Assembly: GCF_964204645.1 (NCBI RefSeq)
Contig: NC_134031.1
Location: 13,813,807-13,877,806, forward strand
DNA: 64,000 nt
DNA from: Tubulanus polymorphus
Taxonomy: Eukaryota > Animalia > Nemertea
Direction of reading: 5' to 3'
The position numbers and the translations under genes are program-made. The notes beneath the pieces were generated by a model, which was given only the letters and a program-made list of their open reading frames with translations, did no database searches and was not told the DNA's origin. Positions 21,450 through 57,615 of this stretch are shown here, one piece after another (positions within the stretch are counted from its first letter, which is position 1; each line of letters begins with the position of its first letter).

Positions 21450-21897
21450 CCATATTGCACAGTGCTCCCAGATGCCGATAGACTACATGTCTCCGCCAAG
21501 CTCCTGGCCACCGCCTTCGCTCAGTACCGCCGCACTACTACTCTCTCGGTGAGTCCCCTGTCCGCTGACTCGGAGGAGGACGGTGACCAGGAGGGTTAAA
21601 ATCTAATGAACCTGTGTCCGCCGAAGCTCGTGTTGGCTCGTTGTCGTGAGCTTCTCAGGCGGGAGGCAAGAGAAGGCCTGCAAGGAGGAAGGCAGATATC
21701 TACTGGGGAATTTTTCAAAAAAGTATCTGCGACTGGCCATTAATTTCTAACGACTGACAGCGAAAGTAAAGAGAGTTTCACGACGCTATCTGAAAATAGC
21801 TCACTTTCATCTTACAGTGTATATAAGTTCCCGGCCTGTTTGGTGATCTGGAAAAGTCATAGGCTCCTGAGGAAAAAGTCGTAATCTAGGCTATAAT

Positions 21898-21987
21898 AGT
21901 AATTAGAAAAGTGGGGTTTCAGGCCAGAGGGCGTGAGGGCGAGACACCACTCATCACCACAAGTAATTTTTTTTCCTAATAAATGGG
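21898..21987 (+). repeat. Left TIR of element A (includes the pPolB start codon)
   Basis: Exact reverse complement of 39263-39352. Confidence 0.95.
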
Positions 21988-24900
21988 GGAGAATGAACAC
22001 CAACCAGAAAACAATAATGTCAATAAAAATCAATATTATTGCCAATATTGTAAAAAATACATCGATACATCTCATAAAACACGACATGAAAAAACTGCAA
22101 ATCATATAAAAAATGTAATAGATTTTGAAACTCCAGAAAATTCTAATGAAAGAAAAGAACGATTAGAAAATATGAATGTGGATGAAATAAAATGTGAAGT
22201 TTGTAATGAATTTATAGTAAAAAGGAATTATAATAGACATCTCGAATCACAAAAACATTATAAAAATTTAAATAAAAATGTTTTAGGATTAGAATATTTT
22301 GATAATAAACCTCAACAAGTAAAAGAATCAACTTCAAAAACTAAATCCATTTCAAATAAACCCTACATGGAAAATGTTAGAAATTATATTGATTCACTAG
22401 AAATAAAAGATACAATTGAAATCTTAGAAACATTACATAGTAAAATTGGTCCTGCAGCTATTATATTTAGATTTTTTAAAGGCACAACAATAGAAGATTA
22501 TAGTAAATTTAATGAAATAATAGAAAAAATACTAGATTTGATAACAGATGTTGAATATCCAAAAATTAGTATCTCTGGGAAAGTAAGTTTTATAAAGTCA
22601 GAAGAAAAAATGGATTATAATATTCAAACACTCTCTGAAGAAATAATTTCAAAAACACAAATAAAAGAGAAGTTAGAAAAAATATTAAATGAATTTAAAC
22701 GTCATATTGAAGAAAGATATTTTGAGGGTTCTGGTTTAACATTGAATGAAATTATATATTTAGATTTAAATGTTTATAATACAAAAAGAAATAAAACATC
22801 AAAAAGTAATAAAATGTTTAAAAATGATTCAAACTTTATAACAGAAAAAGATATGAAAGCATCAAGTTATATCAAATTACCATTTATAACAAAAGCAGTA
22901 ATAAATATTCAAAATGAAGATAATAAATGTTTTCTATGGTCAATTATTAGTTGCTTACATCCAACAGAAGAACATGTTTATAGAATAACAGATTACCGGA
23001 AATATGAAACATTATATAAAATTGATCAATATCCAGTAACTATAAAAATGATTCCTAAAATAGAAAAAGTTAATAATTTAAAAATAAATGTATTTGAATT
23101 AATGCAATTACCAAAGACAAAAGGTGAAAATATTAAAGATTATACATTGGAAGCTTTATATTTAACAGAATATTATGATGATGAAAATGCTATAGATTTG
23201 TTATATTACAAAAAAGATGAAAATGAACATTATATGTGGTTAAAACAAATTGATTTATTCTTTAGAACAACAGAAAGTGATCATCATCGTAAAATTTATC
23301 TTTGTAGAAAATGTTTATCTAAATTTATGACTGAGAATACATTATTAAAACATAAAGAATTATGTGATAATAAAGATTTTTGTAAATTAATAATGCCAAC
23401 AGAAAAAGATTATAAATTGAAATTTACTAATCATAAATTTAAAAATATTGTTCCATTTGTAATTTATGGGGATTTTGAATCGTTGAATAAAGAATTAACT
23501 GATCAAGATAGAAAAGAAATATATAACAAAAAGCAATTATTAAAATCAATGGATAAAGGAAATGAATTAAATGAAGATATAATTCAAGACCCACCAATTA
23601 TAAATACAATTAAAAAAGTTCATCAAAGAGCTGCTGCTTATGGAATTTATATAAAATCAAATTATCCCGAATTATATGAAAGTCAATATATTTCTTTTAG
23701 AGGTGAAAATGTAGTTAATGATTTTTGTGATAAAATGATTGAATTAGAAAGTGATTTTGCAAAATTATTAAACAAAAATAAAAGAATAGTTATGACAAAA
23801 GAAGATGAAATTGATTTTAATTATGCAACTCATTGTTGTTACTGTGAAAAACGTTTTTATTCATTTGATAAAAAAGTTAGAGATCATGATCATTTAAATT
23901 CAAAATATCGTGGAGCTGCTCATGAAGATTGCAATTTACAAGCTAAGAAAGTTAATTTCGTACCAATATTATTTCATAATTTATCAGGCTATGATACCCA
24001 TCTATTTATAAAACAATTATCGGGAAAATTGGGTGCAATTAATCAAGAAATAGAAGAATATAATGCTATGAATGAAGCAAATGTAAGAAAATATGATTTT
24101 AAACTATTAGCTAAAACATCTGAAAATTATATTTCATTTCAATTTGGTTGCATTAGATTTTTAGATTCTTATAGATTTCTAGCAAGTTCATTAGATAATT
24201 TATCAAAATCATTAGTTGATAATGATTTTATTATAACTCGATATTATTATCCAAATGAACAAGATTTTAAATTATTGAGATATAAAGGCGCAATTCCTTA
24301 TTCATTTTATAAAACACATGATGATTTTAATGTAACAGAATTATTAAAAGATCAATTTTATGATCAATTAAAAGAGGAGTATGTGAAAGACGAAGTGTTT
24401 AATAGAACATTAAATATTTGGAACCATTTTAAGATGAAAAATCATGGCGAATTAGTTGATTTATATTTAAAATCAGATGTTATGATATTGGCAGATATAT
24501 TTGAAAAGTTTAGAGAAGTTAATCTAAACCATTTTAATGTTGACCCTTGTTATTGTTATTCAAGTCCTGGTTTAACCTGGCAATGTGGTTTAAAATATAC
24601 AAATGTAGAATTAGATTTATTAAAAGAACCAGATATGGTTTTATTATTTGAAAAATCAATTAGAGGTGGAATTAGTGGTGTTATGGGAGATAGGTATTTT
24701 AAAGCAAATGATGAATATAAATTATTATATATTGACGCCAATAATTTATATGGTTGGGCAATGATGCAACCTCAACCATATAAAAATTTTATATTAACAG
24801 AAGTTGAAAATGATGATAAAACTGATTGGGAAAGCGCAATTACGAGTTTAAAAGATGAAGCGCCAATTGGTTACTTCTTTGTTATAGACTTAGAATATCC

Positions 24901-27049
24901 TGAACATATTAAATTTAAATCTAGAAACTTACCTTATTGCCCTGAACATTTAACTGTAGATGATAGTTATTTAAGTGAATACCAGAAGAAAGTAAAACCG
25001 AAAGATCATGTTTTTACGGAAAAATTAATACTTACTCAAAATAATAAATACAATTATATTGTTCATTATAGAATGTTAAAATTTTATCTAAAACAAGGAA
25101 TGAAATTAAAGAAAGTACATAGATATATTGAATTTAATCAATCGAAGTAGTTAGAAAAATATATAGATTTCAATACTCAACAGAGAACCATATCAAAAAC
25201 AGATTTTGAAAAAGATTTCTTTAAATTAATGAACAATAGTTTTTATGGTAAAACATGTGAAAATATTAGAAATAGAAATGATATTGAATTAGTAAATAAT
25301 TCTGAAAGATTAAGACATTTACAATCAAGTCCTAGACATTTAGGAAATAAAAGATTTGAAGATTATTTAACAGCAGTTAAATTAAAAAGAACATCAATGA
25401 AATTTAATAAACCTATATTTATTGGTTCGACTGTTTTAGAAGTATCAAAATTATTAATGTATGATTTTTATTATAATGTTTTACAACCACTTTTTGGAGA
25501 AAAACATATAGAAATATTATATTTTGATTCTGTAACAGCTGACACCCCAATATTATTAAAATGTAATGATAAAATATTGGTAAGAAGAATTTCAGAAATA
25601 ATTCCAAAACAAAATGAATGTTATATTTCATATGGTGAAAAAGAATTAATACAAATAAATGGATTAATGGATGTTTGGACAAGAAATGGATGGAAAAAAT
25701 TAAAGAATATTATTAGACATAAAACAAATAAGAAAATCTATAGAGTTAGAACTAAATTAGGATTTGTAGATGTTACAGAAGATCATAGTTTAATTAAACA
25801 AAATGGTGATGAAATAAAACCAACTGATATAAAAATTAGAGATGAATTATTACATAAAAGATTTTACCCAAGAATGAATCATATGTCATTTGATGAAATA
25901 ATTGATAATATTTATAATATAGAACCCGAAACATTGGAAGAAAAAGAATATTTTATCAAAGGATTTTTCATGGGCGATGGTTCAGCAGGTGTGTATAATT
26001 ATGTTAGTGGAACTAAATATTGTTGGTATTTATGCAATCAAGACTTAAAATTATTAGAAAGAATTAAGAAATTCTGTGAAGAAGTTTATTCACATAAAAC
26101 ATTTAGAATCATGGACCATATGAAATCATCCGCGGTTTATAGAATACTTGTAAATAATCCTAAAGATTTTGCTACAGAATATAATAATGAATTCTATATT
26201 CATGCAATAGTGAAAAGTAATACTTCAACAAAAGAAAAGATAGTTCCAGATTACGTATTAAATGCAAAAAATAATTTAAGAAAATGGTTCTTCATTGGAT
26301 TCTATGCTGCAGATGGTTCAAAAAGTTTCAAAAACCGCAAAACAATATCTTTAGCTCAAAAAGGAAAAGTTGCTATATCAGGATTGAATATATTATGCAG
26401 TTCATTAGGATTTAATATGAATATTGGATTGATTAAATCTAAACCAAATTGCTTTAATTTAAGCCATGTAGAAAATGAGTTAACAGAAGAAGTTAAAGAT
26501 TTATTTGAAATATATAACCCAACAGATTATGTTTATGATTTATCAACTGAAGATGGTACATTTAACTGTGGATTTCCATTAATAGCAGTCAATACGGATG
26601 CCTACATACTAAAAATCAAGACAAATGACATAACAAAAGACTTAAAAACATTAAAACATCATTTTGATTTTAGCAATTATCCTAAAGATCATGAACTATT
26701 TAGCAATGATAATAAAAAGATTCCTGGTAAATTTAAAGATGAATTAGGAGGTGATGAAATGATTGAATTTGTTGGGATAAGAAGTAAAATGTATTCATAT
26801 AAAACTAAAGAACATGAAGCTAAAAAGTTAAAAGGAATAACAAAACTTGTGGTTGATAATCATATAGAATTTCAAGATTATATAAAGTGTTTATATAAAT
26901 CAATTGTAATGAAACACAAAATGAATTGTTTAAGATCAGAAAATCATGAAATGTATATAAATGAAATTGAAAAAACTAGTTTAAATCCATTTGATGATAA
27001 AAGGCATATTTTAGATGATGGTATAAAAACATTACCTTATGGCCATTAA
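21983..27049 (+). pseudogene. polB: Protein-primed family B DNA polymerase polyprotein (N-terminal C2H2-like fingers, vOTU-like protease, exonuclease with HNH/EndoVII-like insert, polymerase, intein); interrupted by TGG>TAG at 25148-25150
   Basis: Motifs YGDFES, FHNLSGYD, FLDS, YLKSDV, YIDANNLYG, KLMNNSFYGK, YFD/TD, KMY, NPFDDKR; NEDNKCFLW..HY protease-like motif; DHDH..YRGAAH..CN. ORFs 21983-25150 and 25229-27049 are in the same frame and copy B has Trp at the stop. Confidence 0.93.
25529..26593 (+). mobile_element. Intein (355 aa) with LAGLIDADG homing endonuclease in pPolB motif C, copy A
   Basis: ILYFD/SVTADTPILL ... TEDH (block B) ... FIKGFFMGDG and FFIGFYAADG (two LAGLIDADG helices) ... 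YVYDLST (block F) ... LIAVN/TDAY; removal restores YFDTD. Confidence 0.95.
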
Positions 27050-36925: not shown

Positions 36926-37531
36926 ATGGTAGGTGAAAAGAAAATAAAATCTAAAAATGGTGATGTTCCAATTGAAAAAACTTTAGATAATTTAGGAATA
37001 ACAGAAACAAAATTAACTCCAGATGATGGTGTTTTAAATAATGTTACAACAAATAATAATTATGAATATTATCTTTATTGTAAACATCAATTAGAAATAT
37101 TAATAGCATCTGGAAAATGTAAAAATTTTGTCAGTAAAAATTTAACTTATAATGAATTAGACACAATGAAATCAGATGAAATTATTAGATTATTTAAGAT
37201 TTATGAAGCCGCGAGAACAGCTAGAATTAATGACGCGATATCATAAAATGTAGTAAAAGGTTATAGTAAATTATGTAATTATATACTACCAATTGAAAAT
37301 GAAAATAGATTATATTCCGATTTAAAAAATGACTATTTAGTTATGACTGAATTAAATAAATGGATTGGATATTTATCATTTCAATTAGGTGGATTTATGA
37401 CATTATTATCAACTGGAGTTATAACATTTTCAAATATTGAAAGTAAAAATATTTCTATAATAAATGAGCGAGGTGAAAGAAGTGAAGGAATTAACTGTGA
37501 AGAAAAAACCGAGAACTCAGAAACAAATTGA
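36926..37531 (+). pseudogene. Hypothetical protein split by GAA>TAA at 37244-37246
   Basis: ORFs 36926-37246 and 37343-37531 are one reading frame that is continuous in copy B (42181-42723). Confidence 0.8.
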
Positions 37532-37832
37532 ATGGTCTCGACAATTAGGAATTAAATCACAAGAATATAAAAAAGCTGTAAAAGAAAAAATAAGTAATAA
37601 AAATGTTAATAAAAATGGTGAAAATATTGTTATTTCTACTCCTTCTAATAATAGAATATTTGATAAATGTCTATATTCTACAGTTGGATTTGTAATTGTA
37701 TTCATTTTGATTGGGTGTAATTGGTATAAGAAATCAAATAAAATTCATGATATTAATAATTCTGAAACAAATGCTATCAAAAATGAAAATACTTCTGAAA
37801 TTCCAAAATTGATAATAAAAAAAATGGATTAA
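37464..37832 (+). CDS. Basic protein with single TM segment (122 aa)
   Basis: ATAAATG start; KKKPRT basic stretch; VGFVIVFILIG hydrophobic helix. Confidence 0.72.
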   Translation: MSEVKEVKELTVKKKPRTQKQIEWSRQLGIKSQEYKKAVKEKISNKNVNKNGENIVISTPSNNRIFDKCLYSTVGFVIVFILIGCNWYKKSNKIHDINNSETNAIKNENTSEIPKLIIKKMD

Positions 37833-38317
37833 TATTTTAGAAAAAAAGCAAAAAAAATAATTTTTTTTAATTAATTGAATATTAATTGAATATCTCACTA
37901 CTTTTGTCTATCTATGCGGAGCAATTAAATTGTCCAGATAAGTCATTTCGGATTCTAGATATTCATTATTTTTATTATTTTATTTTGTTTTTACTTGAAT
38001 ATTGTATTACAGTCGTTTCTTATTATTAGTTTTTTCTTAAATTGAAAGATGGCAGCACTGGGTGTGATGCTAAAATGAATATTTGAATTTGAATTTGAAT
38101 TTGTTAATCAATTAACATAGTAATTGATCACTAATTTGATTAAAAATTATATCATAATGAAGTTAAAAATACATAATTCATTTATCAGTTTCATTCTTAC
38201 ATTCTTTTCATTCAGAATAATTTATAATTTCAAATTTCACATATTTTTTTAACACCAACAACATTTACTTAGGTGTTTTAGCTAAGTATATAAGGTAATT
38301 CATTCAACCACTAGAGT

Positions 38318-38600
38318 GCCGCCGGGCTTGGCTTGCAGGGGCATTTCGAAAATGCACCTTTGCTCCGTGGTTCTCCTTCAGTTTCGACTTTCGATCCTCC
38401 TTTCGGGGGTAAGGGGTTGATAGGAAATGCATCAGGCGCCTTTAATATAATGTGTTTCCTGTCAACCATTGAAGGAGAATTGGTGAGGTGTGGGTCACAG
38501 GGGTGTAAGTAGAAGTGCTTGGGGATAGGTATCTCGTGGCGCCTCTCAATAACGGGATGCTTATCCCCTAAAAACTCTGCGAGTCAAGACGGGTGGTTTT
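38318..38600 (+). ncRNA. Putative structured non-coding RNA (~280 nt), possibly a Pol III transcript
   Basis: GC-rich ORF-less island with nested helices whose mismatches are G-U wobbles on the + strand; TATATAA at 38287; first TTTT at 38597-38600. Confidence 0.7.
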
Positions 38601-38940
38601 GCTAAAACTTACCATAAAAACATTGAAATATTCCTTTTAATCACGATAGAATGATGACTATCCTCCTGTTGTCACGGTTGAGCTAATTTAAATAAACCTC
38701 GTTTTCAGCAACTAATGAAAACGTAGTAATTCAATACCAGCTAACTGGCTTGTGTGTGTTGTATGTACTGTGTGCTTATTATATAACAACAACGTTGTGC
38801 AACACCTGTTTGATTGATAAATATTCAAATGAAGCACTCTCTTACAATAATATGTAACAGATGTACTGTATGATTATAGTTGTTTATAAAACGACTAAGG
38901 TCATTTTGGATTCTAGATATTCATTATTTTTATTTCTTAT

Positions 38941-39267
38941 TTAATCAACAATTTCTAAATCATGATGACCGTCTTCATTTTTCCCATGATATATTATTTT
39001 AAATCCTACTAAATCTTTCAATTCCTCCATACTCAATGAAACCCATTTATCGGGTAAAAACACTTTAAATTCTCGTGATGTACTAACATTACAGTAGCTT
39101 AAATTAGCTGATACTTTCTCTCCATATTTAGTTTTTATCTTTTCTAATTTCAATATTTTATGTTCAATTTCTTTTGTAACATCAACTAACTTTTTTATTT
39201 CAAATTGTTTTTTTGCTGGTTTTATTCTGTTATTTATTGTTGCTAAGAATGCTTTTCTATCTCCCAT
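38941..39267 (-). CDS. 108-aa terminal protein (possibly OB-fold ssDNA-binding; unverified)
   Basis: Start codon inside right TIR; nearly identical in copy B; TKYG...VFLP beta-rich pattern. Confidence 0.7.
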   Translation of the reverse strand: MGDRKAFLATINNRIKPAKKQFEIKKLVDVTKEIEHKILKLEKIKTKYGEKVSANLSYCNVSTSREFKVFLPDKWVSLSMEELKDLVGFKIIYHGKNEDGHHDLEIVD

Positions 39268-39352
39268 TTATTAGGAAAAAAAATTACTTGTGGTGATGAG
39301 TGGTGTCTCGCCCTCACGCCCTCTGGCCTGAAACCCCACTTTTCTAATTACT
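39263..39352 (-). repeat. Right TIR of element A
   Basis: Reverse complement of 21898-21987; followed by TSD TATAAT. Confidence 0.95.
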
Positions 39353-39846
39353 TATAATCGAACTTTCGATCTAATGCTACGACATGGACCCGTGCATAAA
39401 TATCGTTTTAGAGTCAAATGATCGACCCTGATTCCTCCCCCCCCCCCCCAATTTATATCTTCTTGAGTAGGTGCATGCACCCGTAGGTCATAGTTTTTTC
39501 ATACTCTTCCATTGGTATGACTGGTGACATAGTAATGCAATTAGAAGAATCAATTAGTCAATTCCCACATTTTGAAAGACTTTTATAATGCGAGACTGTG
39601 CGCGGCAGCACAGGCAGTTAGCGCGATTGGCTTGGGATACATGCGTTACTGGTTTCTTCGAAAGTTCCACTTGGGCCCAATGGAATGAAGGTTTGAACCA
39701 GATTTGATGCGATATCACTTTCGATGGCACTATTTGGGTTTTGCGCTGTGATAGATGGCTGCGCTATTTGCGTACGGTTTCACTTTCACAAAGGCAATAT
39801 TTCGAATATTTCCCCAGGTTTTATACGTACGGTTCGGACGGAGTTT

Positions 39847-40037
39847 CAATGCGCACTTATTCTTTTCCAGTATTTAGTATCAATTTTTTCTAGTTTTTCA
39901 ATATGATATTCATCATCTTTTGATAATTTATCTAATTTTTTAAATGTAAATTCTAATTTTTAGGCGCGAATCTTGCATTTAATTTATTCAATTTCTTTGA
40001 TTTCATTGCTTTTCCCTTTGGTTTGTTTCCTCTGCAT
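39847..40037 (-). pseudogene. Decayed homolog of the 108-aa terminal gene, from an older related element
   Basis: ATAAATG start at 40037; frameshifted peptides LNKLNARFAPK and LEFTFKKLDKLSKDDEYHIEKLEKIDTKYWKRISA align to LATINNRIKPAKKQFEIKKLVDVTKEIEHKILKLEKIKTKYGEKVSA. Confidence 0.75.
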
Positions 40038-40240
40038 TTATAAAGAAAGAAATTAACCTACCCTACCTCATTTCTACGTATTTTACCTACCGTACCTCAT
40101 GCATATCTACCTAAATATATTTTAATCGAATTAGATTTATCAAATTCAATACAACATTTACAATTCTTGATATTTTATATTGAATTATATAACGAATTAA
40201 AGGCAATAACTGCTTACATTGATCACAATATTTATAATCA

Positions 40241-41208: not shown

Positions 41209-41329
41209 AGTAATTAGAAAAGTGGGGTTTCAGATCAGAGGGCGAGAGGGCGAGACACCACTCATCACCACAAGTAATTTTTTTTTTCCTACTCATCACC
41301 ACAAGTAATTTTTTTTCCTAATAAATGGG
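41209..41329 (+). repeat. TIR of element B with internal ~30-bp tandem duplication
   Basis: Matches 57526-57615; ACTCATCACCACAAGTAAT(T)nCCT occurs twice (41260-41290, 41291-41319). Confidence 0.92.
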
Positions 41330-41651
41330 AGATAGAAAAGCATTCTTAGCAACAATAAATAACAGAATAAAACCAGCAAAAAAACAATTTGAAATAAAAA
41401 AGTTAGTTGATGTTACAAAAGAAATTGAACATAAAATATTGAAATTAGAAAAGATAAAAACTAAATATGGAGAGAAAGTATCAGCTAATTTAAGCTACTG
41501 TAATGTTAGTACATCACGAGAATTTAAAGTGTTTTTACCTGATAAATGGGTTTCATTGAGTACGGAGGAATTGAAAGATTTAGTAGGATTTAAAATAATA
41601 TATCATGGGAAAAATGAAGACGGTCATCATGATTTAGAAATTGTTGATTAA
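41325..41651 (+). CDS. 108-aa terminal protein, copy B
   Basis: One substitution relative to copy A. Confidence 0.7.
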   Translation: MGDRKAFLATINNRIKPAKKQFEIKKLVDVTKEIEHKILKLEKIKTKYGEKVSANLSYCNVSTSREFKVFLPDKWVSLSTEELKDLVGFKIIYHGKNEDGHHDLEIVD

Positions 41652-41776
41652 ATTTAAAAAAAAATAAATTAATAAAAATAATGAATATCTAGAATCCGAA
41701 ATGACTTATCTGGACAATTTAATTGCTCCACATAGATAGACAAAAGTAGTGAGATATTCAATTAATATTCAATTAA

Positions 41777-42184
41777 TTAAAAAAAATTATTTTTTTTTTG
41801 CTTTTTTTCTAAAATATTAATCCATTTTTTTATTATCAATTTTGGAATTTCAGAAGTACTTTCATTTTTGATAGCAGTTGGTTCAGAATTACTAATATCA
41901 TGAATTTTATTTGATTTCTTATACCAATTACACCCAATCAAAATGAATACAATTACAAATCCAACTGTAAAATATAAATATTTATCAAATATTCTACTAT
42001 CAGAAGGAGTAGAAATAACAATATTTTCACCATTTTTATTAACATTTTTATTACTTATTTTTTCTTTTACAGCTTTTTTATATTCTTGTGATTTAATTCC
42101 TAATTGTCGAGACCATTCAATTTGTTTCTGAGTTCTCGGTTTTTTCTTCACAGTTAATTCCTTCACTTCTTTCACTTCGCTCAT
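41777..42184 (-). CDS. Basic single-TM protein, copy B (C-terminus altered by an A-run indel)
   Basis: Homolog of 37464-37832. Confidence 0.68.
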   Translation of the reverse strand: MSEVKEVKELTVKKKPRTQKQIEWSRQLGIKSQEYKKAVKEKISNKNVNKNGENIVISTPSDSRIFDKYLYFTVGFVIVFILIGCNWYKKSNKIHDISNSEPTAIKNESTSEIPKLIIKKWINILEKKQKKNNFF

Positions 42185-42723
42185 TTATTATAGAAATATT
42201 TTTTACTTTCAATATTTGAAAATGTTATAACCCCAGTTGATAATAATGTCATAAATCCACCTAATTGAAATGATAAATATCCAATCCATTTATTTAATTC
42301 AGTCATAACTAAATAATCATTTTTTAAATCGGAATATAATCTATTTTCATCTACAATTGGTAGTATATAATTACATAATTTACTATAACCTTTTACTACA
42401 TTTTCTGATATCGCGTCATTAATTTTAGCTGTTCTCGCGGCTTCATAAATCTTAAATAATCTAATAATTTCAACTGATTTCATTGTATCTAATTCATTAT
42501 AAGTTAAATTTTTATCAACAAATTTTTTACATTTTCCAGATGCTATTAATATTTCTAATTGATGTTTGCAATAAAGATAATATTCATAATTATTATTTGT
42601 TGTAACATTATTTAAAGCACCATCATCTGGAGTTAATTTTGTTTCTGTTATTCCTAAATTATCTAAAGTTTTTTCAATTGGAACATCACCATTTTTAGAT
42701 TTTATTTTCTTTTCACCTCCCAT
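42181..42723 (-). CDS. Hypothetical protein (180 aa), copy B
   Basis: Continuous homolog of 36926-37531. Confidence 0.75.
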   Translation of the reverse strand: MGGEKKIKSKNGDVPIEKTLDNLGITETKLTPDDGALNNVTTNNNYEYYLYCKHQLEILIASGKCKKFVDKNLTYNELDTMKSVEIIRLFKIYEAARTAKINDAISENVVKGYSKLCNYILPIVDENRLYSDLKNDYLVMTELNKWIGYLSFQLGGFMTLLSTGVITFSNIESKKYFYNK

Positions 42724-42754
42724 TTATAAAACAAATAAATTAGTTGTGTTGTTG

Positions 42755-43027
42755 CAACTAGAATTCAACTAGAATTCAACTAGAATGTAACTAGAATTCA
42801 ACTAGATTAACAAGCTAGTTGAAATATTGTTGTTTTTGTTTATTTCTTGTTAAATCTAGTTGATTTTTGTTTCAACTACTAACAACTAGAATTCAACTAG
42901 AATGTAACTAGAATTAGACTAGATTGACAAGCTAGTTAAAATATTGTTAAATCTAGTTGATTTTTGTTACAACTACCAATAACTAGAATTCAACTAGAAT
43001 TCAATTAGATTAACAAGCTAGTTGAAT
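42755..43027. repeat. AACTAG/CTAGTT repeat array, copy B
   Basis: Counterpart of 36642-36895 with a different unit number. Confidence 0.85.
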
Positions 43028-43636
43028 TTAAATAAATTCATATTTAAATGGGTGTTGTAATCTAAATAGTAATTTTGATCTTTTAATATTTTTCAACTTA
43101 TCCATATATTCATTATGTAAATCATGTGGAATAATATCATTTTCCTCAAGTGCATTTTTCATTGATTTTCTATCTTTATTGTAGAATAAAACTAGAAATC
43201 TTATATTCTCTCTAAAATCTTTCACAATTGAATTATATTTTTGATTTAAAACCCAAGTTGTTATCCCAAAATGTCTCCCAGAGAAAGCTAAATAGCATAA
43301 CTCACTTTCTCTAATTTTTGAATCATGTAAATTTGCACAATCATCTATGATAAATAATGTATTTGATCCTTTATAAATATCAATTGCTATTTTTATACAA
43401 TTATCTAAATTTTCTTTTACTGTTTTAGGATCTAATATAATAAATTTATTATTCCTAGTAATATTTCTATCATAAGTTTGATTAAATTCATATGTTGGAC
43501 AAAATAATACTATATTATCAAAATAGTTTTTGTAAACAGTTTCTAATAAATTTAATATGAAATAAGTTTTTCCACAATTTGTTACGCCAGAAATTAACAT
43601 ATTATGAGGCTCAAATATGAATAATTCCTTATTCAT
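43028..43636 (-). CDS. A32/FtsK-like packaging ATPase, copy B
   Basis: Walker A/B and GRH motifs intact. Confidence 0.93.
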   Translation of the reverse strand: MNKELFIFEPHNMLISGVTNCGKTYFILNLLETVYKNYFDNIVLFCPTYEFNQTYDRNITRNNKFIILDPKTVKENLDNCIKIAIDIYKGSNTLFIIDDCANLHDSKIRESELCYLAFSGRHFGITTWVLNQKYNSIVKDFRENIRFLVLFYNKDRKSMKNALEENDIIPHDLHNEYMDKLKNIKRSKLLFRLQHPFKYEFI

Positions 43637-44764
43637 TTATATATTTTTAATTTTACTTGATAATATCCATTCATTGAATTTATCTGGCCATCCAACCCAT
43701 TTTACTAAAGAATATTTTTTTCTTTTAATAGTTTTTGTTTTTAGTACTTTTTCAATTTTATATTCTTGTTCTATATTTTCAGTAGTTAAACTTAATTCTT
43801 CTTCATAAAAATATCCATCAACTTCTTCACCATCTAAATCTTCTAATTTATAGACATATGGTTTAGTTGTTATTACCTTTTTTATTTTATATATTTCTCT
43901 AGTAAAATTTCGATCGTATCCTTTATCAAATATCTTTTTATACTTAGAAATTCTAACATTTTGACCAACTTTAAATTTAGGTTCACCAAAATCATCTACA
44001 AGAAATGCTCCATATAAATTATTCCAAACAATTTCAGCATTTTCAGGTTTTCTAGCATCAATAGGTTTCATTCCAATAGAAGAATGATAAGAATTATTAT
44101 ATCCTTCTATCAATTTTGGTAAAACATCAATCCATTTAAAAGTATTATTTGCTGTAAAATATTTCCACATTCTTGTTCTTAATGTTCTATTAAATCGTTC
44201 AACAACTGCTGCTTTTTTATCCGATTTTGTTGAAAAATATTTAATATTATGAAAATCTAAAAGTCCATGAACAAGTGAATTATCAAATTCTTTTCCATCA
44301 TCAAATTGTATTTTTTCTGGTTTTAGTTTATCATCCGAAAGAAATTTTCTTAAAACATTTGATGTTTGTACAGCATCTTTTCTATAAAGTGGGAAACTCC
44401 ATACATAACGACTAAAAATATCAATTATATTCAATAACCACCAATAATCATCATTATCTTTCTTAACATTTTTCATATCAATTAAATCTCCTTGCCACTG
44501 TTGATCTACATAACTTACCATAGTTTTACGAGTTTTATATTTTCTAACAATTTTTTTATGTGTTGTATATGTTGGTTGTTCTAACATAAATTCATTTATA
44601 TCTTTATATTTAACTAAATTTTGTGGGATTATCTTATCTAATTTATCTTGTTTTACTTTACGCCATATATTTTTAGTAGAAGAATAAGCAACCGAACTCT
44701 CAGGGTTGTAATATAAATTTCTTAAATATTGTTCTTTAATATTAGGAGTTTTTTTACCACTCAT
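43637..44764 (-). CDS. rve integrase with chromodomain, copy B
   Basis: DDE motifs and chromodomain intact. Confidence 0.95.
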   Translation of the reverse strand: MSGKKTPNIKEQYLRNLYYNPESSVAYSSTKNIWRKVKQDKLDKIIPQNLVKYKDINEFMLEQPTYTTHKKIVRKYKTRKTMVSYVDQQWQGDLIDMKNVKKDNDDYWWLLNIIDIFSRYVWSFPLYRKDAVQTSNVLRKFLSDDKLKPEKIQFDDGKEFDNSLVHGLLDFHNIKYFSTKSDKKAAVVERFNRTLRTRMWKYFTANNTFKWIDVLPKLIEGYNNSYHSSIGMKPIDARKPENAEIVWNNLYGAFLVDDFGEPKFKVGQNVRISKYKKIFDKGYDRNFTREIYKIKKVITTKPYVYKLEDLDGEEVDGYFYEEELSLTTENIEQEYKIEKVLKTKTIKRKKYSLVKWVGWPDKFNEWILSSKIKNI

Positions 44765-44794
44765 TTATATATCCTTAATTTTAACTTTATATTT

Positions 44795-46042
44795 CTAATA
44801 TTGAATACTATCTAATTGTGAATTTACAATATTTAATTGTGCGTCAGATATAATATAAATATGCATTTTAAAATTTTTGATTCCTTTATTCTTTTTCATG
44901 AATAATTGTATTCCATCTTTTGTATTTTGTAGTTTTTTTCCAGAACCATGTAATGAATTATCTTCAGTTGTTCTAAAATCTAACCATAATGCATATTTAT
45001 TACCGGTATAATAATCAATTTGATTAATATTACAATTTTCAAATGATTTTATTTTTTCATTCATAAAATGTTTTTTAATTTCTACCCATTGATCAATCAT
45101 TCTCATTCCTTGACAAAATATTTTATTCGCTATTCCTTCGATAGTTATTTCTACTTTTGTTATTTCAGGATTATAATAATTATCAACATTTATTGCGCCA
45201 TTAGTATACGTTCCAATGGTAAAAAATATTAATATACCTTTAATAGATCTTCTAGGGAAGTTAATATTCACATTAATTATTTCATCATTTGCATTAATAG
45301 TTACAGTTTTAAATTTATCAATATAATCATATAATAATGAAAACCCTTGATTATATTTAGTTTGAATTATACTTGAAATATTTTCATCAGTTACTATATC
45401 ATATTCTAAACATATATTCGATAATTTATAACTCATATCTTTATTAACGCTAGATATTACGATTTCATTTACAGGAGCAAATGTTATCTCAAATATAATA
45501 TCTTCTTGAATTGCGTATTTATATAAAGGTGCATTATTATTTATCAATTCAAAGTCTAATGGAATTTTATATTTGCTTCCATATATACTTTTTATCAATT
45601 TATCTACATCATTTGTTAATATTGCGCTATTAGCTTCTGATCTTAATTTATTTTGGTTTTCTGATTGAATACCCTGAAATATCATATTATTTCTATTTTC
45701 TTTAGTTAACCATAAATCTTTATAATGCATAAATAAATTATAATCATCTAATGAGAAAACTGTTTCCGGACCAATCTTTATTGTTAACTTTTTAATCAAA
45801 TATCTTCCAACATTATCAACGACATAATTATTATTATTACCGATTACTTTTATATCGGCTGATAAATAAATACTATTTGGAACATAAAAAGTATTTTGTG
45901 TTAATCTAGGGATTTTAACGTATAAAGTTTCATCGGGATTAATATTTGAAGGGTTATGAGTAATTATATGATGTGATCTTTCTGCTTTAATAGCATTAGA
46001 TATTCTATGATTCTTCGAAGGACTTATATAACTCCCACTCAT
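44795..46042 (-). CDS. Probable major capsid protein, full length (415 aa), copy B
   Basis: Homolog of 33627-34853 with intact C-terminus. Confidence 0.74.
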   Translation of the reverse strand: MSGSYISPSKNHRISNAIKAERSHHIITHNPSNINPDETLYVKIPRLTQNTFYVPNSIYLSADIKVIGNNNNYVVDNVGRYLIKKLTIKIGPETVFSLDDYNLFMHYKDLWLTKENRNNMIFQGIQSENQNKLRSEANSAILTNDVDKLIKSIYGSKYKIPLDFELINNNAPLYKYAIQEDIIFEITFAPVNEIVISSVNKDMSYKLSNICLEYDIVTDENISSIIQTKYNQGFSLLYDYIDKFKTVTINANDEIINVNINFPRRSIKGILIFFTIGTYTNGAINVDNYYNPEITKVEITIEGIANKIFCQGMRMIDQWVEIKKHFMNEKIKSFENCNINQIDYYTGNKYALWLDFRTTEDNSLHGSGKKLQNTKDGIQLFMKKNKGIKNFKMHIYIISDAQLNIVNSQLDSIQY

Positions 46043-46113
46043 TTATTTAACAAAAAAATTAATTATTTATTTTTTGATATCATGGTTTACTTGATATTTT
46101 TTGATATCATGGT

Positions 46114-47521
46114 TTACTTGATATTTTTTGATATCATATTCACTAACCCAAAAATAATAGCACTAACAACTGTGATTAAAAATAAAATAATATGTTCAGC
46201 AGCAAAGTTAAGAATATTCCCAGCAGATTTCAATATAAAACCAACAATTGAAGCAATAACTCCTGGCAATGCTAAATATTTTGCTAATTTCTTTAAACCA
46301 TCCTTAACTTTATCTTGTATAGAATTATTGCCTGGAGGTTTATCTGGTTTATTTGGAGTAGGAGTAGATTTCAAAGCATTTGATATTGCTAAACCAATTG
46401 TTGTGAATAACATAGTTACAGCTGTTAGAATTGAAAGAATTGTTATTCCTTCTAATTTAAATAATAACTTTATTCTATCTTTCAATGATATTTCAGAATT
46501 TGGTTTTATCAACAAATCTTTAAAAATAACTTTTAATCTATTTATATTATAATCATACGATTTTAACGATAATTTAATTTCTTCTTTTTGTAATTCTATG
46601 TTATATTCTAAATCATCTTTTTCTTTTTCTAAACGTAACTCTTTTTGCCTATATTCTATTTCATCAATTACTTGATGATCTAAATCAGACTTTAATTGTT
46701 CTATTTCTTTATTTTTATCAGTTAATTCTTTTTCTAAAGTTCTAATTTTAAAATCTCTTATACTTTTATTATGTGCAATTTTATCAGATGCAAGTCTTAT
46801 ACTAATCTCTAATTGCTTTATCAGAAAATATATCTAAATCTTCTAATTCTTGATCTGTTGCATCAAGTAATCCCTTCGGTAAAAGTTTTTCAGTTTGAAC
46901 TTCTCTTGAATTAGGTCTACTAGTTTTGGAAGTTTTATCTTCTTTAGGAATTGTTTCTGGTTCTAAATTTTCATTAATTATCTTCAAAAAATCATTATTT
47001 CTTCGATTAAATTCTCTTCTATTTTGATTTATCTCTTCTTCTGTAACATCAGTTATAACATCATTATTGATTTTTTTAATTCTAGATTGTTCTAATTTAA
47101 TAAAAGTTGATTTTGTTATTATTTTATCAAGACTTTTATTAGAAGAAATCTTAAAATAATAGTCATCTTTCAAATGCCAATAATAATCACCATTTAAATA
47201 TTTCAAATCTTTTACTAAATAATTCACACCTTTATTTGTTATATTGAATCCAGATTTTTCTAATATTGGTTTGAATTTATCTGTTAATTCGTCATATTCT
47301 AGTTCTTTTTTCATTAAATCTGGATTTTCATTTTCAATGTCCAATCTTGAACGTGCTTTATTAACATATTCATTGGTATCAGGTCTTGCTAAATTAGAAT
47401 TATATGCTGTTTCATTTTCGTTACTGAAACTTGTTTCATCAAAATCAGGTGGTTGTTCATCAGTTATACCAGGTTCATCAAAAGGATCCATTCCAATATC
47501 TTCTCCACCTTCTACTTCCAT
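46114..47521 (-). pseudogene. Coiled-coil/membrane protein, copy B, frameshifted near 46800
   Basis: Homology to 32008-33606 continues in another frame (ASDKIAHNKSIRDFKIR); also lacks WELSKKSAA and has 27-bp tandem duplications at its 3' end. Confidence 0.8.
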
Positions 47522-47537
47522 TTATATAATAAAAAAA

Positions 47538-48839
47538 TTAAAATTTAAAATATAATATTCCTCCGATTACAATTCCTATACAAGTTATAGCTAATTTAGT
47601 ATTTTCATGGGATTTATTATCATCATTTAGTTTAATTATATCATGTTGAATTTTATCAGTTTTTATATCTTCTGATGTATTGTAATCTTTTATTTTAGAA
47701 TCATTATTTAATTTAATATTCTTAGTTTTAGTTTCTGTTGATTGAATATGTTTTTTATTTTTTTCACCTTCCATTAATTTTGGAGCAGTGATAATCTTTT
47801 TATTTATATCATTTAACCCAAATGAATTATTTATTGTTGCAGTTTTAATTAGATTATTATAACCAATTATATTTCCCATCTTCAATACTAAATCCTTAGA
47901 AATAATTAATAGATTAGGGCCTATACAATAATTAAGTCTTACATGAGATTTATCTAAATAATTTTGATATCTTATAATGTTTTCTGGAATCGATCTATTT
48001 TTATCATTATGAATTGAATCTTCAAATAAAACTTTAAACTGTTTCTGCGCATCGAATGAAGTGTTATCATTTCCAATTATTGGGGATCTTGTTTCAACTT
48101 GAGCGCCTAAAATACATATCAAATAAATTCTAATAGATTGATTTATTCTTTGTATACCTGATTTTGTAAAACCTTCACCATTTTCTAAAATGAAATTAAC
48201 CCAACTATTATTATTATCAATTTTATAATTATGATAAGCTCCAATTCTATGCATATAATCAATTCTTTTTATTTCATACTCTTCACCAACACCTTGCAAT
48301 TTACCATGCGCTCTAAAATCGGAATTAATATTTATATTAAATTCATTACATATTTTATAAAACTTGGATATATTAATATTATTATCCAATTCTTTAAAAT
48401 ATTTAGACCCGGGTAAAGGACATTCTAATTCATTTAATATTATTCTGATTTGAAAATATGTGTGAAATCTAAATATTGTGTGAATTAATTTTAAATCAGA
48501 ATACTTCAAATTTTTATCTAAGTTATTTAAATGATCATTCCAACTAATTCCACATCCTGTTGTTGCACAATAAACAGCAAAATTTAATTGATTCTGCCAA
48601 TATTTCATATTAGATTTTACTTTATATATATGATATTCATCTCGAGTAAAAGTAACTTCATATGTATTAAATATATTTTCCATTTTAGAAATAAAAAACT
48701 GTGATTCATTAACATAAATTTCTAAATTAGTTAATGAATTTAAAACTATATTTTTATATGTAATATTTTTCTTAAAATCTATTGCCGGAATATTATATTT
48801 AATTGATTTATTATATTGGAAAGCTTTTGGAAACCCCAT
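47538..48839 (-). CDS. 433-aa C-terminally anchored protein, copy B
   Basis: Near-identical to 30690-31991. Confidence 0.8.
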   Translation of the reverse strand: MGFPKAFQYNKSIKYNIPAIDFKKNITYKNIVLNSLTNLEIYVNESQFFISKMENIFNTYEVTFTRDEYHIYKVKSNMKYWQNQLNFAVYCATTGCGISWNDHLNNLDKNLKYSDLKLIHTIFRFHTYFQIRIILNELECPLPGSKYFKELDNNINISKFYKICNEFNININSDFRAHGKLQGVGEEYEIKRIDYMHRIGAYHNYKIDNNNSWVNFILENGEGFTKSGIQRINQSIRIYLICILGAQVETRSPIIGNDNTSFDAQKQFKVLFEDSIHNDKNRSIPENIIRYQNYLDKSHVRLNYCIGPNLLIISKDLVLKMGNIIGYNNLIKTATINNSFGLNDINKKIITAPKLMEGEKNKKHIQSTETKTKNIKLNNDSKIKDYNTSEDIKTDKIQHDIIKLNDDNKSHENTKLAITCIGIVIGGILYFKF

Positions 48840-48855
48840 TTATATAACTAAAAAA

Positions 48856-49290
48856 TTAATAATTTATTAATTCTTTTAATAATTTATCTTGTTCTTCAAC
48901 TGTTATATGACCATTTAAACTTATTATATAATCTAGTGTGTTCTTTAATTTATTAATTTCTTTTATATTAGTTTTAATTTTTTCTTTATTACTTTTTATA
49001 TTTAATTTTGAACTTATACCAGTTAAAACACTTGAACTTAATCCTAATACACCAATTGATATAGCTAAAGGTGTTAATGGACTGAATATTGCTAAAAATG
49101 TTATTACAGAACTAATTGTAACCGAACCACTTATAATCAAATAATATATAATTTTACTTTTTAAATATTTTTTCTTTTTAACTTTTAAGTCACTTTCAAA
49201 TTCTAATATTTGTTTTTCTAAATATTTTTTTAATTTAGTTTTATTTATATCATGAGGAATAATATCAATACTATCAACTTTATCTTCCAT
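48856..49290 (-). CDS. Two-TM protein, copy B
   Basis: Homolog of 30239-30673. Confidence 0.78.
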   Translation of the reverse strand: MEDKVDSIDIIPHDINKTKLKKYLEKQILEFESDLKVKKKKYLKSKIIYYLIISGSVTISSVITFLAIFSPLTPLAISIGVLGLSSSVLTGISSKLNIKSNKEKIKTNIKEINKLKNTLDYIISLNGHITVEEQDKLLKELINY

Positions 49291-49322
49291 TTATTTAGAA
49301 TAAAAATTACTTATTAGTAAAT

Positions 49323-49733
49323 TTATAAGCAACAAATATAACAATAACTTGTTCCACCTAAAATCCATATTATTTCATATTTCTGTTGTTCTTTACTTGG
49401 GGTATAATAATCTGATAATTTAGGTTTGTATAGATGTAATTTTTCTTTATTTGTTACTGCGTTATATAAACTCATTGCATCATCAACTGATTGAAAATCT
49501 CTATGTGAAATCTTCTGATCATATAATTCTTTATTGATGTAATCCATATAGTTTTGTCTCTTTTCTCTATATTCTTCTGCAGCTTTATTGTATTTCTCTA
49601 ACGCTAAGTTATGTCTTCTTTGTTCTCCTAATGAACTATTTTTATCAATATGTTTAAATAAATAACCACCACCAGTAAATGCTAAAGCGTTAACAATTGC
49701 CGATCCTATAATAGTTATAATTGCAGAAGCCAT
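49323..49733 (-). CDS. Membrane protein, copy B (frameshift alters the C-terminal TM)
   Basis: Homolog of 29797-30219; diverges after LGGT. Confidence 0.7.
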   Translation of the reverse strand: MASAIITIIGSAIVNALAFTGGGYLFKHIDKNSSLGEQRRHNLALEKYNKAAEEYREKRQNYMDYINKELYDQKISHRDFQSVDDAMSLYNAVTNKEKLHLYKPKLSDYYTPSKEQQKYEIIWILGGTSYCYICCL

Positions 49734-49757
49734 TTATTTAACAAAAAAATTATGCAT

Positions 49758-49979
49758 TTATATGGGAGGAATATATTTTTGTTTTTCCAAATAATCAATA
49801 GTTAAATTAGATAAAGTAACTGCTAATGTTAACTTTAAAATATCATTTATATCAAATCTATCAACATTAACACTTCCCATTTTGAATACTTTTTTTAATA
49901 CCATTGAATAACCAACAGTTCCAACTGATAGTAAGGCACCATTATATAATCCAGTTATTATCCACTTATTATCATTCAT
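49758..49979 (-). CDS. Small hydrophobic protein (73 aa), copy B
   Basis: Homolog of 29551-29772. Confidence 0.75.
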   Translation of the reverse strand: MNDNKWIITGLYNGALLSVGTVGYSMVLKKVFKMGSVNVDRFDINDILKLTLAVTLSNLTIDYLEKQKYIPPI

Positions 49980-50321
49980 TTATTTATCAAAAAAATTACT
50001 ATCATCAAAATATTTAGTTAACTTATTTATGATTAATTCAACATTTATTTCATTACTAGTTTTATGATTATCATATATTTTGGATAATATGTTTTTAATA
50101 TCTTCAATAATTCCATCTTCATTTAATTCATAATATTCTAAAGGTGATTTAATTAAATCAATTACTTTTTCTATATTATACTTTTCTTCATCAATCATTG
50201 ATGCATTGTTAAATGATTTACTTTTTATATCAGTAATTACATCATTTAGTTTAATTCTCATTTCTTTACCATGTTTAAAATCAAACCCAAAACATATACT
50301 CGGTCCAACAGTTATATTCAT
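49980..50321 (-). CDS. Hypothetical protein (113 aa), copy B
   Basis: Homolog of 29191-29547 with divergent middle. Confidence 0.75.
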   Translation of the reverse strand: MNITVGPSICFGFDFKHGKEMRIKLNDVITDIKSKSFNNASMIDEEKYNIEKVIDLIKSPLEYYELNEDGIIEDIKNILSKIYDNHKTSNEINVELIINKLTKYFDDSNFFDK

Positions 50322-50337
50322 TTATATAGGTGAAAAA

Positions 50338-51099
50338 TTACTCTTTACATCTTATAACTAATTCATAAATTACAGGAAAGTTATTCAAATCAATTAAGTA
50401 TCCATTATGATTTCTAATTTCTAATCTAAAATTATTAAAACTAGGAATGCATGGTTTGAAATCACAATCTGTTAAATTATAATTTATTTGCGTTCCAAAT
50501 TCTTTAACATTCTTCCATGGTAAAATGTTTAGTAAACCAGAATTACAAGTTATATCTTTAGTTGCTTCGAATGTTTTTGTAGGATCGATTAAATTGCAAT
50601 AAATATAAAAATGTGTGTAAGGTATTAAGTTTGGTGTAGTAGCGTCAATATTTGTAAAAGATCTATCTGGAAGAATTCCTAACAGTTTAGCTATAGGTTT
50701 TTTTACCATAAGTTTATGTTTTTCACTATTAGACAACCTTATCTTTATTCTATCAGAACTCTCACTTTTTAAAAATCTAATACTAAACCCAGAACTACTA
50801 CCTAATTTGTGCCAGGCTTTTCTATTAATTTCTTGTGCTAATGTATCTAAATTATATAACCCTGGTTTTAAATATATATAGACCCATTCATTTTTATTTC
50901 TAATATTAATTAAAATGACTCTATGTTCAATAGACTTATCCGATACATTGTAAAAAGAATTACATAAACTTATATTAACTAATTTTAAATCTACACAATT
51001 CTTAAATTCTCTATCTAATTGTACTAGTAAATTATGAGATTTATAATTTGTAAGTTTTCTAGAATCAACAAATATTCTGTATTCTTTTAATTCTACCAT
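50338..51099 (-). CDS. Minor capsid protein (penton), copy B
   Basis: Homolog of 28416-29174 with divergent central region. Confidence 0.8.
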   Translation of the reverse strand: MVELKEYRIFVDSRKLTNYKSHNLLVQLDREFKNCVDLKLVNISLCNSFYNVSDKSIEHRVILINIRNKNEWVYIYLKPGLYNLDTLAQEINRKAWHKLGSSSGFSIRFLKSESSDRIKIRLSNSEKHKLMVKKPIAKLLGILPDRSFTNIDATTPNLIPYTHFYIYCNLIDPTKTFEATKDITCNSGLLNILPWKNVKEFGTQINYNLTDCDFKPCIPSFNNFRLEIRNHNGYLIDLNNFPVIYELVIRCKE

Positions 51100-51167
51100 T
51101 ATTTATAACACAAAAAAATTACCGCTCATCACTAAAAATTAATTTTAATAAAATTTTTCCTTAATAA

Positions 51168-52469
51168 ATGGATGAGAAGATAGCATGCGAAATTTGTGGT
51201 GAACTTCTAAGAAAAAGTAATATGGCTCGACATATGAAAAAACATGATGAAAATTATAAACCCCCTAAAATAAACTGTCCAAAATGTAATAAATTATTCT
51301 CAAGAAATTATGTTAAAAAACATTCAGAGAAGTGTAGAATTAATGGCGCAACGGCTAATGTTGATAGTAATTCTGCTGAAGTTGAACCTGAAGTTATTTG
51401 GAAAAGACCTTTCTTATTCTATGATAAGGATAATATAAAAGATCATTTCTGTGAGCCTTGTCAAGTAAAATATAGCCCTGAAAATATAGAAGATTGGGAG
51501 AATCATCAATTTCGTAAAGCACATATAGATAAAATTTCTAATAAATTTGAAACTGAATTCAATGAAAGAAAAAATAATTTATTAGAAAAAATAAAATATG
51601 AGAAAACGTTACCAGATAATAAAGAAACAGTTGAAAAGTTAGAAAAACAATATAATGAATTAACAAGAAAAACATATTATTGTAAATATTGTAAATTGAT
51701 TATTACAACAAGTAATTCAAATCTACATAATAGAACAATAAAACATAAAGAAAACGTAAGAAAATACCAAGAGCTTAATGAAGATCTATTACCAATAAAT
51801 TATAAACGAAAATGCCCACAATGTAGTTATGCGACCTTAAGACAAGAAGGTACTGTGTTATTTTGTGTTGAATGTGGATGGCAAAAGAATTTATGGGGTG
51901 AAGAAAAAACTAGAGATTTTCTCATAGAACCAAAATTAAATTATCTAGATGAAATTTTTAAAATATTTTCTATAGAAGATCATACACCAGAATATATGCA
52001 ATGGCTTGAAAAAATGAAAATAATAGAAAATAAAAATGGTGAAATAACTAAAAAAGATATTATAAAAACAATTATTCCACCAACATTTAACACAAAACAA
52101 AAGAAAATGTATTTATATTTATTATTTAACGATTATTATGAAAAACCTAAATTAACAGAAGAAGATATGGAAAATATAAAAAAAATATTTAAACAAATAT
52201 TAATGTATCATTTGGAAAATAGAATAACAGATTCAATAAATTATGAATTCTTTTTAAATAAGATTGTAAATTATTTAAACCTAGATATTATAATTCCATT
52301 TGATGAATTAACAAACAAAAAGAAACAAAGAGAGCGAGATGAAATGTGGAACAAGATAGAACTTTATTTAAATGAGAAAAATGGAATGGAAGAAGAACCT
52401 GAACAATTAAATGAAAATGAAGAAGCCAATAGTGATTTCGAGTATGATGATATTGATTTTATGTTTTAA
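51168..52469 (+). CDS. Zinc-finger/VLTF3-like protein, copy B
   Basis: Near-identical to 27046-28347. Confidence 0.7.
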   Translation: MDEKIACEICGELLRKSNMARHMKKHDENYKPPKINCPKCNKLFSRNYVKKHSEKCRINGATANVDSNSAEVEPEVIWKRPFLFYDKDNIKDHFCEPCQVKYSPENIEDWENHQFRKAHIDKISNKFETEFNERKNNLLEKIKYEKTLPDNKETVEKLEKQYNELTRKTYYCKYCKLIITTSNSNLHNRTIKHKENVRKYQELNEDLLPINYKRKCPQCSYATLRQEGTVLFCVECGWQKNLWGEEKTRDFLIEPKLNYLDEIFKIFSIEDHTPEYMQWLEKMKIIENKNGEITKKDIIKTIIPPTFNTKQKKMYLYLLFNDYYEKPKLTEEDMENIKKIFKQILMYHLENRITDSINYEFFLNKIVNYLNLDIIIPFDELTNKKKQRERDEMWNKIELYLNEKNGMEEEPEQLNENEEANSDFEYDDIDFMF

Positions 52470-57530: not shown

Positions 57531-57615
57531 TTATTAGGGAAAAAAATTACTTGTGGTGATGAGTGGTGTCTCGCCCTCTCGCCCTCTGATCTGAAACCCC
57601 ACTTTTCTAATTACT
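57526..57615 (-). repeat. pPolB-side TIR of element B
   Basis: Reverse complement of the 41209 terminus; followed by TSD TATATG. Confidence 0.95.

Follow-up and report, generated by a model that had tools for sequence, protein, structure and literature searches.

A poxvirus-type gene-start signal in an integrated Polinton of the nemertean Tubulanus polymorphus

Maverick/Polinton elements of animals, such as the adintoviruses (PMC8502044) and the polintoviruses of corals (PMC11131425), are described as carrying a protein-primed family B DNA polymerase (pPolB), an rve integrase, an A32-like packaging ATPase, a double jelly-roll capsid protein, terminal inverted repeats and a 6-bp target-site duplication. 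We found the same set in a Polinton, copy A, which occupies positions 21898..39352 of a 64,000-nucleotide stretch of the genome of the nemertean Tubulanus polymorphus (contig NC_134031.1, positions 13,813,807 to 13,877,806; hereafter the window). Copy A differs from the described elements in that its polymerase contains an intein, in that one signal stands before every gene, and in that no adenain-like maturation protease was detected by Pfam among the 17 proteins scanned, this protease being common in Maverick/Polinton elements but not universal. The word 'promoter' is absent from the main text of both papers.

Polinton-type elements have been proposed to be hyperparasites of entomopoxviruses in an animal, and one of their lineages is reported to branch with maverick-polintons (PMC11296320). 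Those elements were found in occlusion bodies together with their helper, and two are described as devoid of known integration genes, whereas for copy A the evidence is its promoter signal; the terms 'VLTF', 'motif' and 'transcription' have no occurrence in the main text of that paper. A second parallel is offered by mavirus and the endogenous mavirus-like elements of Cafeteria, which are likewise integrated, encode pPolB and an rve integrase, and carry the late promoter motif of their helper, different types having different motifs (PMC10945749). These belong to the Lavidaviridae of a protist, have a mimivirid helper and another motif, and their reactivation is documented.

Copy A is an integrated Polinton. 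It starts with AGT and ends with ACT, is flanked by the target-site duplication TATAAT (21892-21897 and 39353-39358), and is bounded by terminal inverted repeats of 90 identical bases (21898..21987, plus strand, and 39263..39352, minus strand); AG...CT repeats and a 6-bp duplication are those of a Maverick/Polinton. The left repeat ends, on its inner side, in the promoter and first bases of the polymerase gene, and the same promoter in the right repeat starts a 108-aa gene. Two islands of low GC content (21-28%, as compared with about 39% outside; 22-26% in the gene region of copy A) lie in the window and are inverted copies of one Polinton. The other one, copy B (41209..57615, minus strand), is mostly 93-98% alike to copy A, has the same promoters, and is flanked by the duplication TATATG. 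An empty site is represented by a contig of run X1 that joins 21890 to 39355, that is, both flanks of copy A, and thousands of variant contigs map on the element; these only show that many variant copies exist, as summed contig depths do not equal copy number. From the empty site and the variant contigs, it follows that the family is multi-copy and recently mobile.

An earlier reading of the window, made from its letters alone (the original prediction), had stated that 14 of the 15 genes of copy A start in ATAAATG, the penton gene excepted. This is confirmed: ATAA directly precedes the ATG of 14 of the 15 genes, and ATAAATA that of the penton gene, against 16 of 687 other ATGs preceded by ATAA in the element (binomial P ~2e-22 for the gene starts). 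Further upstream stands a core, TAAWWTW, whose first base is placed exactly 19 bases ahead of the penultimate A of ATAAAT in 14 of the 15 genes. Counted from the ATG, its TAA is at -19 in 13 genes and at -20 in the gene at 37464; in the penton gene the distance of 19 holds from the ATA of TAAATA. The core reads TAATTTT in 11 of 15 genes and TAAAATT in three. AA is found at -18/-17 in all 15 genes, and T at -14, -13 and -12 in 15, 14 and 13 of them. A T-tract had been announced at a loose distance of some 10 to 20 nucleotides: the tract exists, but its position is fixed. With a spacer of 8, the composite motif TAAWWTW-N8-ATAAATR has 14 matches in copy A, each at a gene start, and with spacers of 4-7 and 9-12 it has none. 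Using 200 third-order Markov simulations, we obtained a mean of 0.46 and a maximum of 4 matches, for a pattern derived from the same data that the simulation tested.

The signal precedes both genes of a divergent pair, as well as the genes lying 217 and 284 bases past a stop, and the two terminal genes start from an identical site inside the terminal repeats. It belongs, therefore, to gene starts and to TAAAT, and not to upstream stops. In the penton gene the core keeps its spacing to TAAAT, with the ATG displaced downstream by three bases; as the spacing follows TAAAT and not ATG, the signal likely acts in transcription. It also places a T at -3, a poor base in the Kozak context, where relatives lacking the signal have a purine in 72 of 96 open reading frames (ORFs); an A leader would put an A back at this position. 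In copy B, 14 of 15 genes obey the rule, as predicted, but this copy does not constitute independent evidence, given its likeness to copy A. A relic of a gene like the 108-aa one (39849..40055, minus strand, ATG at 40037) was expected to obey as well: with TAATTTCTTTCTTTATAA directly before its ATG the promoter is of the same type, but its core is one base closer, at -18.

In the late promoters of vaccinia virus, TAAAT(G) is described as overlapping the start codon, with a T conserved ten bases upstream; the intermediate promoters are described as having an AT-rich stretch 15-19 bases upstream (PMC11980589). Copy A has TAAAT(G/A) over the start codon with a T ten bases upstream, so that the poxvirus-like character claimed by the original prediction is borne out: the geometry of a poxvirus post-replicative promoter is found before every gene. 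That the polymerase gene is included is expected of a virophage. The vaccinia intermediate and late promoters (PMC11980589, PMC12722222) and the initiator of the yeast pGKL elements (PMC6831550) share with the Polinton signal an initiator, TAAAT(G), that overlaps the start codon, and an A/T core upstream, and in these known systems untemplated poly(A) leaders are reported to arise by polymerase slippage (PMC12722222, PMC6831550). Vaccinia virus and pGKL encode their own polymerase, and the Polinton differs by its fixed TAAWWTW core at one distance. Judged by its bases, the Polinton signal is of the poxvirus type, and not a copy of a known poxvirus consensus. As a poxvirus control, we took the 20 ORFs of L121, an entomopoxvirus-like contig (18% GC, carrying genes for A2L, MSV199 and NAD ligase), nine of which start in TAAATG.

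The original prediction also recognized a VLTF3-like protein of 433 aa, encoded on the minus strand at 27046..28347 (promoter 28345-28366), and proposed a structure search as a check; profile, language-model and fold searches all uphold it. The whole protein had no PF04947 match by Pfam and found no homologue when used as a query. Its C-terminal 214 aa match PF04947 with 28.3 bits, for a gathering cut-off of 25 (E 1.7e-6). After N-terminal zinc fingers, the structure model (pLDDT 80.8) contains a predicted zinc ribbon followed by a helical VLTF3 fold. In the viral fold search with Foldseek, the best hit was cowpox A2 (E 2.4e-6, TM 0.60), and entomopoxvirus homologues ranked third and fifth; there was no fold match among the solved structures of the PDB. 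The Atlas language-model search agrees on VLTF3 (score 0.96, with a low recognition value). Among 1.84 billion proteins, four sequence matches were found, of which P0121 begins like an ORF of a related locus (L001), and P0124 has an A2L zinc ribbon and is 63% identical to a gene of L121. We conclude that the protein, as predicted by profile and model, carries a C-terminal VLTF3 domain. VLTF3 homologues have been reported in a subset of coral polintoviruses (PMC11131425). We found no report of TAAATG promoters in Polintons, most subscription papers and supplements being outside the search. Within the same scope, no published promoter evidence for the reading of Polintons by a poxvirus-like polymerase was found.

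To follow the signal among relatives, we used 67 metagenome loci that encode a related capsid, several of them near-duplicates, and scored the 46 with at least 3 scorable ORFs. TAA directly before ATG is the rule in 16 loci (89 of 102 ORFs; 20-44% GC) and is not in 28 (3 of 203 ORFs), two loci being intermediate. The rule is nearly all-or-none, and its distribution on the capsid tree is patchy: in a quick tree of 57 capsids, from which 11 of the 67 loci were excluded as too short, the trait needs 8 changes, gains or losses, all forced by starred branches. Such patchiness recalls the distinct motifs of endogenous mavirus-like types (PMC10945749). The signal is kept at 39-44% GC in three loci (L007, L008 and L041), is present across capsids only 33-77% alike and two polymerase types, and precedes non-homologous, lineage-specific genes (a kinase in L001, others in L003, L004 and L007). 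Its presence before such genes and with both polymerase types argues that it is maintained.

Another fixed signal, WTTY-N10-TATA, is used by two relatives, L017 and L028 (L029 is near-identical to L028), with 13 and 12 sites at spacer 10 versus 2-4 at spacers 7-9, mostly within about 15 bases before the ATG. In its layout it resembles the p72 promoter of African swine fever virus (ASFV), for which TATTT at -15 to -11 and TATATA at -1 to +5 are given (PMC5294985); late genes of ASFV are reported to have short leaders, with slippage at an ATA start (PMC7163114). This second dialect fits helper switching, and equally well private factors encoded by the elements. Two further loci of 26-28% GC, L019 and L022, have TAAA(A)n directly before the ATG in 5 of 9 and 4 of 4 ORFs, possibly a third dialect of intermediate type, or else an AT-rich Kozak context.

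A deoxynucleoside kinase gene (E 1e-31) is present in two TAAATG-type relatives (L001:10343-10981 and L008:2898-3380) and in no other scanned locus; as a nucleotide-supply gene, it would suit cytoplasmic replication. RNA polymerase subunits, TBP and capping enzymes were found neither in 23 of the 40 ORFs of TAAATG loci without a BLAST match to copy A, nor in 29 of the 59 such ORFs from other loci. For the capsid protein, no relatives were found in viral_contigs, and a homologue with 39% identity is named from a bivalve; adintovirus virion proteins have been described as restricted to animals (PMC8502044). Together with the gene-poor, repeat-rich flanks, the bivalve homologue and this restriction point to an invertebrate animal as host. 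Entries labelled as Bartonella assemblies contain capsid homologues that are 55% identical (cluster P0046), on contigs 0.5-1.6 kb long; these are probably contamination from an animal host.

Taken together, we slightly favour the explanation that this Polinton is an endogenous virophage-like parasite, read by the polymerase of a poxvirus-like cytoplasmic helper. The fixed late-promoter-like signal and the gene for a poxvirus-type late factor make reading by such a polymerase likely, and by Pfam copy A encodes no RNA polymerase (nor TBP nor capping enzyme), as is the case in virophages. Transcription would start in the AAA of TAAAT and slip, adding an untemplated poly(A) leader, which would provide the 5' leader missing from the DNA. 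All genes, including the polymerase gene, would be expressed together in the post-replicative phase of the helper, whose late factors the VLTF3 protein of the element may join or compete with. The integrated copy would otherwise be silent, and be released when the host cell meets the helper. Run X5, whose RNA status is a guess, gave only matches of 21-35 bases, including a low-complexity one of 32 bases with a poly(A) end at 41777, and was not used.

Several observations weigh against a poxvirus-like helper. L121 has no fixed TAA-T-tract core, the Polinton core being the more rigid of the two. In the motif scan of viral_contigs, 53 loci had a single match to the full motif; apart from two loci with only 3-4 ORFs, none used it near-universally, and no convincing helper emerged. 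AATAAA depletion does not separate the groups of loci (observed/expected, O/E, 1.06 and 1.07), and neither does that of ATTAAA or GTRAG. The integrase is intact and variant copies are many; the element must therefore reach the nucleus. The Foldseek ranking is weak, with 15-22% identity and a poxvirus A2 perhaps favoured by its length. The idea that VLTF3 marks the TAAATG grammar also fails, as L017 and L028 have weak VLTF3-like genes (165-169 aa; E 3.6e-5 and 6.4e-4, both under the cut-off) without TAAATG, and no VLTF3 gene was found in two TAAATG loci, the possibly incomplete L036 and L045. As far as these gene contents tell, the VLTF3 gene is not coupled to the gene-start grammar. Mriyaviruses are not known to encode an RNA polymerase. 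VLTF3 is reported to be conserved also in these viruses of 35-45 kb (PMC11253617).

Nor does the intein lead to poxviruses. It contains a LAGLIDADG domain and sits at 25529..26593 in the YxD/TD site of the polymerase (21983..27049, plus strand; PF03175 E 4e-14; promoter 21964-21985). Contrary to the view that it points to a nucleocytoplasmic large DNA virus as helper, its closest relatives make up a clade of 11 members (support 99, FastTree), the annotated ones of which lie in Polinton-type polymerases, one of them in a cluster of 136 members. Identity is 46-63% for the top seven relatives and about 40% for the delta-like family B polymerases that come next; these other close relatives are mostly at the same site. 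The intein hosts P0141 and P0148 best match Pol delta among solved structures, no poxvirus polymerase was among the best 60 matches shown for them, and the host polymerases could not be assigned to virus families. Past exchange of the intein with large DNA viruses is plausible, but the intein does not name the helper. Inteins in Polintons are not reported in the part of PMC12220804 that was consulted.

The T-tract does not behave as the poxvirus early terminator TTTTTNT for which it had been taken. Only 6 of 16 ORF ends tested have TTTTTNT at most 31 bases from the stop, and the tract is also present at sites where no gene ends (both terminal repeats and the divergent pair). TTTTTNT is scarce in the coding strands of copy A (7 against 18 expected), but this is general run avoidance that includes A-runs (A7: 6 against 35), and GC-rich relatives without the signal likewise avoid T-runs. 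The diagnostic form T5VT, whose sixth base is not T, shows no significant depletion in copy A (6 against 9.0 expected); it is depleted in other TAAATG loci (15 against 27.5), where a weak terminator effect may exist. An initially apparent group-specific depletion of TTTTTNT (O/E 0.35 versus 0.91) was rejected, as it did not withstand its controls.

Among other explanations, the strongest is that of an autonomous element, whose private promoter host RNA polymerase II would read in the nucleus, guided by an element-encoded factor such as the zinc-finger/VLTF3 protein, by analogy with the late complexes of beta- and gammaherpesviruses. A core more stereotyped than that of L121 speaks for it, and so do the multi-copy, recently mobile state of the family and the WTTY-N10-TATA signal of a sister lineage with its own VLTF3-like gene, which fits co-evolution of factor and promoter. 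However, the VLTF3 and polymerase genes share one signal, so that no early gene would start the cascade; initiation inside TAAAT would leave almost no leader, and initiation upstream would leave the T at -3; and TAAATG loci without a detected VLTF3 gene exist. We consider this explanation rather unlikely, although a serious competitor.

The signal might also be a vestige of a helper-dependent ancestor, the present copies being nuclear transposons that depend for their movement on read-through or on weak transcription by the host. The polymerase is indeed disrupted in both copies, by an in-frame stop at 25148-25150 in copy A and by a frameshift near 55010 in copy B, where the homologue of the 532-aa gene is broken as well; no helper was found; and between A and B the core is not significantly more conserved than the spacer (1/126 versus 5/112 bases, P 0.10). 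However, its retention before lineage-specific genes, across distant capsids and two polymerase types, needs continuing selection, and we regard a vestige as improbable.

Even less probable is a role in translation, by stop-restart on a polycistronic RNA, or as the poly(A) signal of one gene that overlaps the start of the next. The TAA at -19 is the upstream stop in 3 of 11 tandem junctions, the TAA before the ATG is a stop in 1 of 11, and many sites contain AATAAA; but several read TATAAA instead, the signal occurs where no gene ends (terminal repeats, divergent pair, gaps of 217 and 284 bases), and the penton spacing is set by TAAAT. Finally, it is hardly credible that the pattern results from 77% AT and closely packed genes: the starts of L019 and L022 show that AT-rich loci lean the same way, but the background count, the simulation (at most 4 against 14) and the signal's persistence at 39-44% GC oppose it, the first two refuting composition alone for copy A.

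The other genes of copy A lie on the plus strand, except the last. The probable penton gene (28416..29174; promoter 28394-28418) keeps the putative label of the original prediction. It is followed by six genes (29191..33606; 118, 73, 140, 144, 433 and 532 aa) whose promoters begin at 29172, 29532, 29778, 30220, 30671 and 31989; five have homologues in several related loci, and the 118-aa gene in L001 only. The double jelly-roll major capsid gene (33627..34853; promoter 33608-33629) gave a model of pLDDT 85.5 that matched the PBCV-1 capsid (Foldseek E 9e-16), mavirus capsid coming at ranks 41-50, after PBCV-1 and iridovirus. Next are the integrase gene with a chromodomain (34905..36032; PF00665 E 2e-10, 41.3 bits for a cut-off of 32.6; promoter 34886-34907) and the A32-like ATPase gene (36033..36641; PF04665 E 1e-12), the promoter of which (36014-36035) is inside the end of the integrase gene. 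Two genes of 106 and 122 aa (36926..37832; promoters 36907-36928 and 37444-37466) come before the 108-aa gene (38941..39267, minus strand; promoter 39265-39286), and the 106-aa gene is shortened by a stop relative to a 180-aa copy in B. With full-length open frames, the genes appear to be intronless. The tight packing announced earlier is real from 29191 to 36033, with gaps of 0-51 bases between tandem genes, but not before the last two, where the gaps are 284 and 217 bases.

About 900 bases between the last two genes of copy A (38000-38900) are missing from copy B, and a 44-base direct repeat is found in copy A at 37942-37985 and 38900-38942. Both copies have short tandem repeats, with spacings of 97 and 117 bases, between the ATPase gene and the next one (36621-36892), and in a terminal repeat of copy B (41260-41321) the upstream half of the promoter is duplicated in tandem over 31 bases, without TAAATG. 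The flanks of the window are gene-poor and repeat-rich: neither a host gene, in 36 frames searched, nor a tRNA was detected. A host repeat with 154-base units occurs at 10076-10678, 16183-16692, 40885-41203 and 63262-63701, and copy B is inserted within one such repeat. Its units contain CCACCAGGGGGC, which presumably resembles a CTCF site.

The rigid 22-base signal before every gene allows a direct test of the expression of animal Polintons and of their autonomy as viruses. If a poxvirus-type polymerase reads the signal, part of the animal Polinton family consists of virophage-like parasites of large DNA helpers, and elements could be sorted by helper from their gene-start grammar. More tentatively, and with less confidence than for copy A itself, a widely distributed set of animal Polintons may be endogenous virophages, with helpers from a poxvirus-like group in aquatic invertebrates still to be discovered, their promoter dialects having switched with the helper. 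Were this true, gene-start grammar would predict helper class, since sister lineages would change dialect (poxvirus-like TAAAT, asfarvirus-like WTTY-N10-TATA) as they change helper; the grammar might then also be the mark of an antiviral element that is inducible in animals.

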